Source: an uncultured Chloroflexia bacterium (GTDB taxonomy: Bacteria > Chloroflexota > Anaerolineae > CG2-30-64-16). Taken from it: a DNA stretch of 64,000 bases. A program made the translations under genes and the position numbers. Below, piece by piece: positions 5,275 to 29,812 of the stretch. Below the pieces are notes generated by a model that was not told the origin of the DNA, made no database searches, and worked only from the letters and a program-made list of their open reading frames with translations. Location: assembly GCA_963810095.1 (NCBI GenBank), contig CAWEMM010000011.1, forward strand, positions 224,001 through 288,000. Direction: 5' to 3'. Within the stretch, counting starts at the first letter, position 1. Each line of letters starts with the position of its first letter.

Positions 5275-7959
<2,685 letters not shown>

Positions 7960-26762: not shown

Positions 26763-28286
26763 ATGCCGCAGTATCTGATGGGGATTGACGTCAGCACCAC
26801 GGGCGCGAAGGCGCTGGTGATCGACGCACAAGGGAACGTGATTGCCTCGGCAACGGAGGAGTACCCGCTCTACACACCAAAGCCGCTGTGGAGCGAGCAA
26901 AACCCGGAGGACTGGTGGCAAGGGGTGATCCGCGCGGTGACCCGGGTGTTGGCCGCGCCCGGGGTTACGGCAGAAGAGATTGCCGGGATCGGGCTAACCG
27001 GGCAAATGCACGGCATGGTGCTGTTGGACGACGCGGGCCGGGTGCTGCGGCCGGCCATCCTGTGGAACGACCAGCGGACCGGGCCGCAGTGCGAGGAAAT
27101 CACCGCCTGGGCGGGCGGCCTCAAGCGAACGGTGGAGCTCACGGGAAACGCAGTGCTCCCGGGCTTCACCGCGCCGAAGGTCGTGTGGGTGCGCGAGAAC
27201 GAACCGGCTGTGTTTGAGCGGGTGGCGCAAGTGCTGCTGCCCAAGGATTATATCCGCTACCGGCTGACCGGCGAGTACGCAACCGAGGTGTCGGATGCGT
27301 CTGGCACCGCGCTGTTCGACGTCGGCAACCGGCGCTGGAGCGCGACGATGGCCGGCCTGCTCGCGATCCCGATGGGCTGGCTGCCGCACGTAGACGAGTC
27401 GCACGTGGTGACAGGCCGGGTCGCGGAAAGCGCGGCCAGGCTGACCGGGCTTAAGGCCGGCACACCCGTGGTGGGCGGCGGCGGCGACCAGGCCGCGCAG
27501 GCGGTTGGCAGCGGGATCGTCCGGCCGGGCATCGTGTCGGTGACCAGCGGCACCAGCGGCGTCGTCTTCGCCCACGCGGACTCCTACGCGCCCGAGCCGG
27601 CCGGCCGGGTCCATGTCTTTTGTCATGCGGTGACGGGCGCGTGGCATGCCATGGGCGTGATGCTCTCCGCGGGCGGCGCCTTCCGCTGGCTGCGCGACGC
27701 GATGGCAGGCGAAGAGAAAGCTGCGGCCGCGGCATCCGGCCGTGATCCCTATGAGCTGCTAACAGAACAGGCCGCAAGGGTGCCGCCCGGCAGCGAAGGG
27801 CTCCTCTTCCTGCCCTACCTGACCGGCGAGCGCTGCCCCTACCCCGACCCGAACGCACGCGGGGCGTTTGTGGGCCTGACGCTGCGGCACGGCAAGGGCC
27901 ACCTGGTCCGCTCAGTGCTGGAGGGCGTGTCGTACGGGCTGCGCGACAGCCTGGAGCTGATCAAGGGTCTCGGCGTGCCGATCGATCAGGTCCGCGCGTC
28001 GGGCGGCGGCGCGAAAAGCCCGCTCTGGCGCCAGATCCAGGCGGATGTGTTCGGGACGGAACTGGTGCTCGTCGACGTGACGGAGGGCGCGGCGATGGGT
28101 GCTGCGCTGCTGGCCGGCGTCGGCGCGGGGATGTACGGCGACGTGCGCGAGGCGGTGGATGCGGCCGTGCATGTCACGAGCAGCACGAAGCCGCAGGCGG
28201 ATGCCGCGGCAGAGTACGAGCGGGGTTACGCGCTGTATCGGGACCTGTACCCGGCGCTCAAGCCGACGTTCGACGCGCTGGCATAG
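26763..28286 (+). CDS. xylB: xylulokinase
   Basis: GIDVSTTG, GLTGQMHG, ILWNDQR, SDASGT, GGGDQAA, PYLTGER. Confidence 0.92.
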   Translation: MPQYLMGIDVSTTGAKALVIDAQGNVIASATEEYPLYTPKPLWSEQNPEDWWQGVIRAVTRVLAAPGVTAEEIAGIGLTGQMHGMVLLDDAGRVLRPAILWNDQRTGPQCEEITAWAGGLKRTVELTGNAVLPGFTAPKVVWVRENEPAVFERVAQVLLPKDYIRYRLTGEYATEVSDASGTALFDVGNRRWSATMAGLLAIPMGWLPHVDESHVVTGRVAESAARLTGLKAGTPVVGGGGDQAAQAVGSGIVRPGIVSVTSGTSGVVFAHADSYAPEPAGRVHVFCHAVTGAWHAMGVMLSAGGAFRWLRDAMAGEEKAAAAASGRDPYELLTEQAARVPPGSEGLLFLPYLTGERCPYPDPNARGAFVGLTLRHGKGHLVRSVLEGVSYGLRDSLELIKGLGVPIDQVRASGGGAKSPLWRQIQADVFGTELVLVDVTEGAAMGAALLAGVGAGMYGDVREAVDAAVHVTSSTKPQADAAAEYERGYALYRDLYPALKPTFDALA

Positions 28287-28408
28287 GGGGGTGTTCTATG
28301 AATCGGGCGCTGCTTCCGCTTCTGGCTCCGTAGTCCTCCGCTTTAGAACTAGGCGGACTTGCGTCATAAGTAGAGAAAAAGTTTGCAGGAAAGTCCGACA
28401 TTCCGCCG

Positions 28409-28437
28409 ATGACTTTTCCAAAGTCCTCCCCTATACT
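28409..28437 (+). promoter_or_regulatory. putative sigma70 promoter of the candidate sRNA
   Basis: ATGACT-17 nt-TATACT. Confidence 0.5.
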
Positions 28438-28443
28438 CTTGCT

Positions 28444-28630
28444 TGGGTGTGGGGAGTTAGAGCTTCTTCTGAGTGGGTGTGAGGACACGTGGGATGGTCG
28501 TAGAGACTTGGGGGAGTTGAAGCGACCGGTTTTCCCTCCGTGGACGGGTGTGGGGACCGCGACGAGAGTTGGGTGGATGTGGGGTGAAGAGGGGAGAGCC
28601 TTGGGGGAGGCTCTCCCCTCTTCACTTTAA
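28444..28630 (+). ncRNA. candidate G-rich small RNA with repeated GGGUGUGGGGA/UUGGGGGAG motifs
   Basis: Bounded by a promoter-like site and a strong hairpin; motif repeats at 28445, 28475, 28508, 28546, 28569 and 28601; no credible ORF. Confidence 0.5.
28584..28630 (+). terminator. 18-bp perfect hairpin terminator
   Basis: GTGAAGAGGGGAGAGCCT-TGGGGG-AGGCTCTCCCCTCTTCAC then TTTAA. Confidence 0.75.
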
Positions 28631-28661
28631 CCGTCCTCTGGCATCAGGAGCGCCCGATCAG

Positions 28662-28734
28662 TACCCCCAGCAGGACTCGAACCTGCAGCCTTAGGCTTAG
28701 AAGGCCTCTGCTCTGTCCTTTGAGCTATGGGGGC
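28662..28734 (-). tRNA. tRNA-Arg(TCT)
   Basis: GCCCCCA-TA-GCTC..GAGC-A-GAGGC-CTTCTAA-GCCTA..GCAGG-TTCGAGT-CCTGC-TGGGGGT-A cloverleaf; CCA not encoded. Confidence 0.95.
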
Positions 28735-28745
28735 GCCTCCTGATT

Positions 28746-29189
28746 CTAGCGTTTGGGCGATTCGCTGTCAATTAACTGCGCCGGCGCGTCCAAGTCGTTC
28801 AGCCACGCCATAAACGCGGGCAGGTCGGCAAATACCTGGGCGGCGATGGCGCGGATCACCCAATTCTCGCGTAAGGGCGAAATGGCGATAACCGGCACGC
28901 CCTTTTCGTAGGCTGCGTTCATCTCCAACGCGGTGCCCATGCTCGCCTGTGGCACATAGGCGATGACGACATCGCAGGAACTGGCGAGCGTCACCAGGGC
29001 AAACAGCGTCTCGCGGGCCGCCTCGTCGTCGTACTCCACGCTGTTGGGGTGCAGCACCAACGGGTCGATCACGTCGAGGTCGGGCCACTTCGCCAGCAGC
29101 GCCTCCCCGATCGCATTCCGATATGACTGGTCGACAATGCCCTTCCCCGCCAAAGATGCCTGCATAACGCCTGCCAGAAACACCCGCAT
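28746..29189 (-). CDS. nucleoside 2-deoxyribosyltransferase-like protein
   Basis: MRVFLAG..., CDVVIAY...SMGTALE...KGVPV pattern of the NDT/DNPH1 fold. Confidence 0.6.
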   Translation of the reverse strand: MRVFLAGVMQASLAGKGIVDQSYRNAIGEALLAKWPDLDVIDPLVLHPNSVEYDDEAARETLFALVTLASSCDVVIAYVPQASMGTALEMNAAYEKGVPVIAISPLRENWVIRAIAAQVFADLPAFMAWLNDLDAPAQLIDSESPKR

Positions 29190-29191
29190 CG

Positions 29192-29812
29192 CTAGATCCT
29201 CCCGAAGGTATTTTCGACCACGCCCGGCAGCAGGTCATAGATACTGCACCCGGCGCGCCGCTCGAAGTCCGCACGAATTTCGAACTTCTTGCGCCACTTC
29301 CGCACGCTGTACGGGCTCACACCCACTTCCGCGCCGTACCGGATCGCCACATCCAGCATCCGCTTCTCCATCAACACGAACCCTTCGGCCATGGCGAGCG
29401 CGTCGCACAACTGGATCAGCCGGTCGTAGTCGTCGAACTCGACCCGTGCGAGGTAGTCCTGTATGAAGCGCAGCTCGGCCGGGTTGCAGTCCCACTCGCC
29501 GAAGATCTCGCGGTAGTCGCCGGCGGGGAAAGAGTGGGTCAGGCTGATGCGGGCTGCATCGTCGAAGCCGAGACCGGCAAGATAGTGATACCCGTCGAGC
29601 ACGTGGCGCATGCCCGTGACGCCCTCACGGCGGCCGATGTCGTGCAACAGGCCGAGCACATACGCCCCTTCCGCATCCAGGCCGGGTACACGGTCGGCGA
29701 TGCGCCGCGCGGCCTCGCCCACGTGTTGCGAGTGGGCCGTCCACGGCCCCGGATTCCGTGCGCCCGCCTCGGCAAGCAGCGCTTGGGCGGCAGCCAGTTC
29801 AGGTATCAGCAT
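29192..29812 (-). CDS. HD domain phosphohydrolase
   Basis: HS..V, GLLHDIG, H..G, LCDAL; ATG after AAGGAG. Confidence 0.88.
   Translation of the reverse strand: MLIPELAAAQALLAEAGARNPGPWTAHSQHVGEAARRIADRVPGLDAEGAYVLGLLHDIGRREGVTGMRHVLDGYHYLAGLGFDDAARISLTHSFPAGDYREIFGEWDCNPAELRFIQDYLARVEFDDYDRLIQLCDALAMAEGFVLMEKRMLDVAIRYGAEVGVSPYSVRKWRKKFEIRADFERRAGCSIYDLLPGVVENTFGRI

Follow-up and report, generated by a model that had tools for sequence, protein, structure and literature searches.

What is encoded in the gap that separates a carbohydrate kinase gene from a convergent tRNA-Arg(UCU) gene in the genome of an uncultured member of the Chloroflexota? The window (the whole stretch of 64,000 nt that was analyzed) had been read earlier from its letters, and the original prediction placed in this gap a candidate sponge-type small RNA (sRNA), with a promoter, about 185 nt of G/U-rich non-coding sequence containing recurrent G-rich motifs, several short stems with G-rich loops, and an 18-bp hairpin followed by a T-run. 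All of these features were found where they had been placed (Table 1). The questions are whether they make up an RNA gene, what such an RNA would do, and how well other readings account for the same observations.

Table 1. Positions of the features discussed (numbered along the window unless another locus is named)
Feature	Position	Strand	Remarks
Window on source contig	C11:224001-288000		6.13-Mb assembly, 65% G+C, 88.5% complete
FGGY carbohydrate kinase gene, xylB-like	26763-28286	+	Upstream neighbor of sRNA; Pfam
Upstream block 1, TGCGTCAT	28360-28367	+	About 80 nt before inferred start; candidate regulator site
Conserved block 2, GACATTCCGCCGATGACT	28397-28414	+	Holds -35; imperfect palindrome GACAT-N7-ATGAC; candidate operator/activator site
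-35 hexamer ATGACT	28409-28414	+	Inside conserved block 2
-10 hexamer TATACT	28432-28437	+	Promoter scan; kept in homologues
Inferred RNA, about 185 nt	28445-28630	+	Start from -10 position and conservation onset; 3' end inferred in UUU after hairpin
Motif GGGUGUGGGGA, copy 1	28445-28455	+	Predicted mean unpaired probability 0.52
Motif GGGUGUGAGGA, copy 2	28475-28485	+	Predicted unpaired probability 0.58
Helix H2, nested hairpin GGUCGU..GACUU-GGGG-GAGUU..GCGACC	28496-28527	+	Covariation
Motif GGGUGUGGGGA, copy 3	28546-28556	+	Predicted unpaired probability 0.57
G-box GUUGGGUGGAUG	28568-28579	+	Best-conserved single-stranded segment, just 5' of terminal hairpin
Terminal hairpin	28584-28625	+	17 Watson-Crick pairs, tip UUGGGGGA; covariation
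Tail UUUAAC	28626-28631	+	Presumed 3' end, short U-tract
tRNA-Arg(UCU) gene	28661-28734	-	Convergent conserved neighbor; Rfam tRNA match 68.2 bits
tRNA-Arg(UCU) promoter TTGACA-17-TAGAAT	28771-28743	-	Near-consensus, 11/12 positions, directly upstream of tRNA
RNA-like locus, genus g4 (G052)	L081, about 1270-1651
RNA-like locus, genus g4 (G024)	L090, about 1260-1636
RNA-like locus, genus g4 (G051)	L110
RNA-like locus, genus g4 (G010)	L113

The locus and its promoter

The gap between the kinase and tRNA genes measures 370 nt and contains the promoter, the G-rich body and the hairpin; the kinase gene is itself preceded by a GFO/IDH/MocA oxidoreductase gene. The body is strongly skewed in composition: positions 28443-28583 hold 65 G, 35 T, 21 A and 20 C among 141 bases (46% G, 14% C). 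The excess of G over C per 140-nt window, 51 here, lies five standard deviations from the genome mean (mean 0, standard deviation 10.2) and is among the genome's highest values (peak 56; 73 merged regions of at least 40). This composition, an open reading frame (ORF) that is not conserved and helices that are (both described below) bear out the description of the roughly 185 nt as G/U-rich and non-coding. A mobile or REP-like repeat was rejected as an explanation: the complete element is present in a single copy in its own genome, its neighborhood is constant across the genus, and only its 3' module recurs in the genus.

The predicted sigma-70-type promoter, ATGACT-17-TATACT, is present, and a promoter scan of 28200-28800 returned two promoter-like sites, against 0.1 expected from shuffled sequences, the second being the promoter of the tRNA gene. 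Among the homologues the -35 hexamer is ATGACA/T and the -10 hexamer reads TATACT, TATCCT, TAACAT or TATGCT; their spacing of 17-18 nt is held while the sequence of the spacer varies freely. Because conservation of the RNA begins 5 nt past the -10 hexamer in five close homologues, we place the transcription start near 28445.

Conservation extends upstream of the hexamers as well. The 11 nt ahead of the -35 hexamer (GACATTnnGCC) are conserved among homologues, and about 35 nt upstream of that stretch the sequence TGCGTCA is found in six of the seven aligned genus loci (degenerate in G002) and at a metagenome locus (L056), with both of its flanks unconserved. The exact 17-nt block GACATTNNGCCGATGAC occurs at the sRNA locus only, in five of the eight genus genomes; at the same locus G001 carries one mismatch, the more degenerate G002 copy is unmatched, and G005 has no such block. 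In its own genome the promoter block is unique even under looser patterns, and a search for a regulon returned one-mismatch or looser matches lying mostly within coding-looking sequence, with no regulon or regulator found. We suggest that the promoter block GACATTCCGCCGATGAC is a candidate site for a dedicated transcription factor that would set the level of the sRNA. Judged from sequence, then, the sRNA gene is driven by its own sigma-70-type promoter, with the -35 hexamer lying within a 17-nt operator-like block, and ends in a predicted very stable G-tipped hairpin.

Conserved structure and phylogenetic spread

The expectation that the element would be conserved in relatives was borne out in seven of the eight genus genomes and on one contig from a metagenome. 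When 40 relatives were searched at the DNA level, matches to the intergenic part were confined to the genus itself. Public MAGs account for three relatives, and bear the labels Chloroflexia, Anaerolineae and Anaerolineales. A covariance model built on the whole RNA (R1) recovered the element in the same seven genomes, its own included and G005 being the one without it, matched end to end in eight loci, and gave no strong-scoring match in 16 other genera. One genome, G001, has a second, diverged copy (a paralogue) with a promoter of its own, ATGACA-17-TATTCT. A promoter-pattern scan of metagenome sequence gave 33 loci, of which one (L056) is a true homologue and 32 are chance matches. Every syntenic copy stands tail to tail with tRNA-Arg(UCU), and the gene upstream is that of the kinase or, in genomes that lack it, of the oxidoreductase. 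Identity in the five closest homologues is 75-86%, and much of the apparent conservation of motifs may therefore reflect shared recent ancestry rather than selection.

Covariation, proposed at the outset as a check, speaks to structure more directly: in an R1 alignment of nine sequences, standard pairs fill 94.8% of the pair cells and both sides have changed in 20 of the 30 pairs, values reached by none of 500 shuffles (slid controls pair 45-55%) and counted on an alignment fitted to R1's own structure. The changes fall on 8 of 9 pairs in helices 1 and 2 (at H2 of Table 1) and on 10 of 14 in the terminal hairpin (helix 4), and the G001 paralogue has fully compensated H2 stems (GGCCG/CGGCC with GCGAC/GUCGC). 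Single-sequence folds independently recover H2 and the terminal hairpin in most homologues. The plus strand folds at -86.6 kcal/mol, against -69.4 +/- 3.9 for shuffles (z -4.4); the minus strand also beats its shuffles (z -4.96), so the z-scores of the two strands are not discriminating. The pairs themselves do discriminate: 5 of the 30 are mostly G.U or U.G, combinations that the opposite strand would turn into C.A mismatches, and the RNA is therefore probably the plus strand, the only one that such pairs fit.

Three features persist in the distant copies, namely the H2 tip CUUGGGGGAG, the G-box GUUGGGUGGAUG and the terminal hairpin, whose tip is identical to that of H2. The G-box is unique in its own genome, recognizable in all nine homologues, and takes the form GGGUUGAGG in the sister loci considered below. 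The terminal hairpin is retained in 11 loci on differing stem sequences, always with a run of G at its tip. As for the predicted hairpin and T-run, the long hairpin stands, with 17 Watson-Crick pairs instead of 18 (G.U pairs lengthen it to 19-23 pairs, over 28580-28629), and the T-run is reduced to TTT (in TTTAAC). With a U-tract of only TTT, where a canonical intrinsic terminator has about five U or more, the site is probably not one of that kind, and a terminator scan flags it solely by counting Ts in the 3' arm of the hairpin. Of 11 tabulated loci, 7 have the tail UUUAA(C/G) after the hairpin; in G004 and G007 the predicted stem takes up the first U, so that UUAAG is left, and the remaining two loci have GUUAUGG or GUUCUGG.

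Elsewhere in the body the predicted details proved less uniform. Among the four small stems originally described, ACT-TGGGGG-AGT and the terminal hairpin are upheld by covariation, and GTGT-GAGG-ACAC and CCG-TGGA-CGG are lost in more distant homologues. The motif GGGTGTG(G/A)GGA does recur at 28445, 28475 and 28546, as does TTGGGGGAG at 28508 and 28601, and the exact 11-mer GGGTGTGGGGA has five occurrences on both strands of the 6.13-Mb genome, two of them within the sRNA. Overall, the G-rich motifs have predicted mean unpaired probabilities of 0.42-0.58. The G/U-rich repeat units vary in number: the region measures about 100 nt in G003, and in genus g4 it reaches about 400 nt.

The RNA matches no known family, in agreement with the original prediction: none of 4227 families of Rfam 15 matches in a scan of 27800-29300 at E <= 10, in which the neighboring tRNA alone exceeds the gathering score of its family. 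A further 35 rows lie far below theirs and are nearly all microRNA-precursor models placed on the hairpin, plus a few other weak ones; the best non-tRNA match, one of these precursor models, reaches 27.8 bits where 72 would be the gathering score. At E <= 0.01, Rfam likewise has no match in the tested stretch of the G001 copy (L007), the G001 paralogue (L082), or the sister loci L081 and L083, and a full-text literature search on sRNAs or G-rich RNAs in Chloroflexi/Chloroflexota found no such RNA described.

Four sequencing runs, all stored as contigs, were compared with the locus, and three RNA libraries, each of a different study, have contigs over the RNA body (X15, 28427-28681; X16, 28425-28584; X18, 28374-28753). 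These contigs are unstranded assemblies from relatives, with 4-34 differences; they may contain DNA, and they speak to presence in RNA libraries rather than to strand, ends or level, stretches without cover being uninformative. X15 and X16 extend past the inferred start on its upstream side, to about 28420, and that both of these short contigs end there may be because the assembly graph can branch where the variable spacer begins. Two of the three contigs run on into the tRNA gene; one of these two, X18, spans from the kinase gene to the tRNA. We take this cover as at best weak support for expression.

A separate observation concerns the neighboring tRNA gene in relatives. In G001 (L007:1826-2063) about 236 nt of inserted sequence split tRNA-Arg(UCU) at its anticodon loop, and the gene is also split in G014 (C9:6165-6456, about 220 nt) and G016 (C21:23799-24518, about 640 nt); ARAGORN finds no tRNA at the split genes. 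A group I intron was considered for the G001 insert and set aside, Rfam giving no such signal even at E <= 10; the insert could be a novel intron type, a disrupted gene or an assembly artefact.

Comparative evidence thus identifies the predicted sRNA as a lineage-restricted family in one genus of uncultured Chloroflexota. The family is, on the same evidence, real, conserved and previously undescribed, and of the putative stand-alone regulatory RNA kind.

Mode of action and competing explanations

For the locus as a whole, the best explanation, which we consider probable, is a stand-alone structured non-coding sRNA gene at 28445-28630 on the plus strand. Base pairing in trans, argued by analogy, is a more tentative proposal, the likeliest of the mechanisms considered but with less than even odds when taken by itself: C-rich RNA partners would be captured, with no need of Hfq, by exposed G-rich elements (the two CUUGGGGGAG hairpin tips, the three single-stranded GGGUGUGRGGA repeats and the GUUGGGUGG box), and the dedicated transcription factor at the conserved promoter block would set the amount of the sRNA. 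Hfq was not found in the element's own genome, nor did the models of the C-rich partner RNAs RsaE/RoxS (RF01820) and 6C (RF01066) match there at E <= 1; that genome is 88.5% complete, so Hfq, CsrA or a partner RNA may have been missed, and a partner may be specific to the lineage. Scans of the genome for complementary sites (including a 9-mer complement scan) returned noise and no clear partner, and the 14 genomic sites complementary to CUUGGGGGAG, besides the two in the RNA itself, have no common context.

One lead came from the rho gene of the same genome (C6:557150-557465, L092), whose leader measures about 270 nt and is preceded by a TTGACG-17-TATACT promoter. The first 30 nt of the leader, (A/G)UCCACCCACCCUCUC.., are C-rich and conserved in six genus genomes, and this C-rich 5' tract is probably a Rho-loading site for autoregulation. 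The tract (C6:557199-557230) is partly complementary to the G-box of the sRNA, to which the leader has a 10-bp match. By 7-mer complementarity to the sRNA the rho leader ranks 65th of 139,229 non-coding windows, by duplex energy (30-nt seed) it ranks 7,764th of 142,346 windows, and no joint change of leader and sRNA was seen in G002 and G003. Given these mixed statistics we treat the rho leader as a lead only; if it is a true target, the sRNA would mask a Rho-loading site, linking it to the control of transcription termination.

The titration mechanisms first put forward for the RNA did not fit. An architecture like that of CsrB/RsmZ finds no support in the count of CsrA (PF02599), which is 0 for the 37 genomes in the family (16 with a completeness of 90% or more) in a search whose control detected the protein in E. 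coli, B. subtilis and T. maritima, nor in GGA, which is not enriched (9 copies against 5.7 +/- 1.9 in composition-matched shuffles, with a fraction of 0.079 of the shuffles reaching 9); only two GGA lie at hairpin tips, and three have a mean unpaired probability above 0.6. A decoy for anti-Shine-Dalgarno pairing fails on GGAGG/CCUCC, which is unconserved in close relatives: G004, G007, G006 and the metagenome copy no longer have GGAGG at the tip of the terminal hairpin, which in them reads CCUGGGGGGGCU. A titrating, sponge-type RNA in the general sense may still be the right description, by analogy with RosA and RsaI only.

Part of the RNA reaches beyond the family. Its 3' module (the G-box, the G-tipped hairpin and UUUAAC) also closes other transcripts in two genera, and a covariance model of the module (R2) finds it in all eight genomes of the sRNA's own genus, g1, and in all four of genus g4; R2 scored 119 of roughly 450-1,300 first-look candidates per genome, so that copy numbers are lower bounds. 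Directly upstream of the module lie, in various genomes, genes for a GlsB/YmgE-like membrane protein (contig C10 of the sRNA's own genome, G001, G005 and G006), a response regulator (G007) and Hsp20 (G003). In its own genome there are 65 hairpins followed by TTTAA, and the sRNA and the C10 locus have by far the most G-rich upstream flanks. Sister RNAs in the second genus share only the 3' module with the sRNA.

Several loci around this module are worth describing in their own right. A second G/U-rich, C-poor stretch of about 270 nt in the sRNA's own genome (C10:109569-109939, minus strand; L083:270-640) follows the gene for the GlsB/YmgE-like small membrane protein and that gene's hairpin, and ends in a 20-bp hairpin with a GGG tip and then TTTAAT. 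It is kept in G001, G004 and G007, is shorter (about 100 nt) in G005 and G006, and could be a 3' untranslated region or a separate sRNA. In genus g4, the four RNA-like loci of Table 1 represent a G/U-rich region of about 400 nt with repeated CCUCGGUGUG..AACGAGG hairpins, which starts with UUGGGGGAGUU and ends with GAACCGGUGUAGC-UGGGGGG-CUGCACCGGUUUC and GUUUAAG. An Rfam scan of one of the four (L081) gave no match, and a 93-nt 'tRNA-Ala' called by ARAGORN beside the G052 sister RNA was rejected, with no Rfam tRNA match at E <= 0.01. In G006, three of four module loci are nearly identical (two on L123, C5:4647-4723 and 6137-6225; one on L130, C550:919-991), reading ..GGGGCAGGRGGGCUCAUGCC-UGAGGGG-GCAUGGGCCC..UUUAAC behind different genes, which suggests that the terminator module spreads by duplication. 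A larger picture can be drawn, which we regard as speculative and give a low probability: an uncultured Chloroflexota order would possess a group of G/U-rich, C-poor RNAs with the sRNA as its founder, defined by G-box, G-tipped hairpin and UUUAAC, some of them free-standing and some forming the mRNA 3' ends of stress genes (GlsB-like, Hsp20), in one post-transcriptional network around one factor or one set of C-rich RNAs.

The module also bears on two alternatives to a trans-acting, base-pairing sRNA. If its recurrence reflected recognition by an RNA-binding protein specific for the G-box and the G-tipped hairpin, the sRNA, which has two such tips, could be a decoy that titrates this protein in competition with module-bearing mRNAs. 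The presence of the module throughout both genera, also directly behind protein genes, would fit such a decoy, as would the tip (U)UGGGG(G/A), kept across 11 loci despite wholly different stems, and a number of repeat units that varies between homologues, as in sponge RNAs. We nevertheless think it unlikely, since there is no candidate protein (the CsrA and Hfq searches are given above), since a G-tipped hairpin at a 3' end requires nothing beyond termination and stability, and since the R2 scores of the module (30-36 bits) are not far above those of bare wrong-strand hairpins (21-27 bits). The same use of the module to end protein genes elsewhere in the genus, together with the position of the hairpin between convergent genes, could instead point to a cis element, a strong two-way transcription stop and insulator between the sugar-kinase and tRNA-Arg genes whose G-rich transcript would have no function in trans; G004 and G007 moreover have a second hairpin before the tRNA, with a T-run (GGAGGTTTTTCC) in G004 and none in G007. 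What makes this reading improbable is that a dedicated promoter with a conserved operator-like block transcribes into the hairpin, that conservation extends to the 140-nt body on the 5' side of the hairpin, in which the covarying H2 lies, and that G005 lacks the element at the same tRNA locus.

Two further alternatives change the strand or the nature of the product. The functional RNA might be the C/A-rich minus strand, as a 3' trailer of the tRNA-Arg transcript; the 3'ETS-leuZ of E. coli is an sRNA sponge cut from a tRNA precursor. Here, the tRNA promoter reads towards the element with no U-run terminator between, the minus-strand fold outscores its shuffles as noted above, and the RNA-library contigs are unstranded, one of them joining the RNA body to the 3' part of the tRNA. 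Against this, the five mostly-G.U pairs become C.A on the minus strand, the conserved hexamers make sense only as a plus-strand promoter, and the minus-strand z-score is due to the symmetric hairpin alone, so that we judge a functional trailer very improbable. Finally, the many G-runs raised the possibility of a G-quadruplex-forming RNA, as in the original prediction, and the coordinates 28409-28630 coincide exactly with a mechanical 73-amino-acid ORF, open in the window, whose ATG lies inside the -35 box; either product we hold to be exceedingly unlikely. The canonical G3+N1-7 motif is missing from seven of nine homologues, all minimum-energy structures are unchanged when quadruplexes are allowed in folding, and the G-tracts of G002 are broken (for example, GGUGUAGAGA). 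The ORF is shortened to 16-52 amino acids in the six homologues tested (G001 was left out because the wrong ATG was picked), a lone 1-nt indel separates the window from the 86%-identical G001, and a Pfam search in either frame gave no match.

Comparison with known regulatory RNAs

A stand-alone, pairing sRNA, the reading we prefer, resembles several known systems in part. Like the CsrA/RsmA sponges CsrB, RsmY and RsmZ, the sRNA has repeated purine-rich motifs, two of them at GGA-containing hairpin tips; it differs from them in the CsrA and GGA counts given above and in the lack of an Rfam match. Its 3' end can be compared with those intrinsic terminators of high-GC bacteria in which the U-tract is short or missing. 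The likeness is a long, perfect GC-rich hairpin followed by only three U; the difference is that here the tip and the G-box are conserved on unrelated stems, whereas a plain terminator requires neither.

A closer parallel is RosA (S345) of Bacillus subtilis, an RNA sponge for RoxS and FsrA (PMC8216469). RosA is a stand-alone RNA of about 200 nt that has a promoter of the housekeeping type and ends in a terminal hairpin (PMC8216469), features that the sRNA shares as far as its sequence alone can tell. RosA has several G-rich regions predicted to be accessible, and those of the sRNA, with the unpaired probabilities given above, may be so too; RosA has a regulator site at its promoter, for CcpA, where the sRNA has its candidate block; and RosA works without Hfq, as the sRNA would (PMC8216469 for RosA). 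There are also differences. RosA and the sRNA are unrelated in sequence and in Rfam, a C-rich partner like RoxS/RsaE could not be detected in the sRNA's own genome, the host belongs to the Chloroflexota, and no cre-like site for CcpA was recognized by eye; and the sRNA is G/U-rich over its whole body, whereas RosA is so in three patches (PMC8216469).

RsaI (RsaOG) of Staphylococcus aureus has two G-rich regions (PMC8216469), and its G-rich tracts bind the C-rich sRNAs RsaG, RsaD and RsaE, its expression being tied to sugar availability (bioRxiv 10.1101/278127; PMC8216469). The present sRNA adjoins sugar-metabolism genes, a likeness to the sugar-linked expression of RsaI. RsaI also has a C-rich region for mRNA targets, whereas the sRNA is C-poor throughout, and the two share no homology. 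The sRNA may, by analogy, work like RosA and RsaI, but it is not a member of either family.

Regulatory RNAs of the Chloroflexota appear to have been little studied, and work on the regulator, on the partner and on the annotation of these genomes can start from the promoter with its candidate operator and from the two covariance models, R1 and R2. Should the G-rich tips capture no C-rich RNAs, the family would be one more lineage-specific sRNA. If they do, the sponge principle of RosA and RsaI would extend from the Firmicutes to a distant phylum, in which it would operate without detected Hfq or CsrA.
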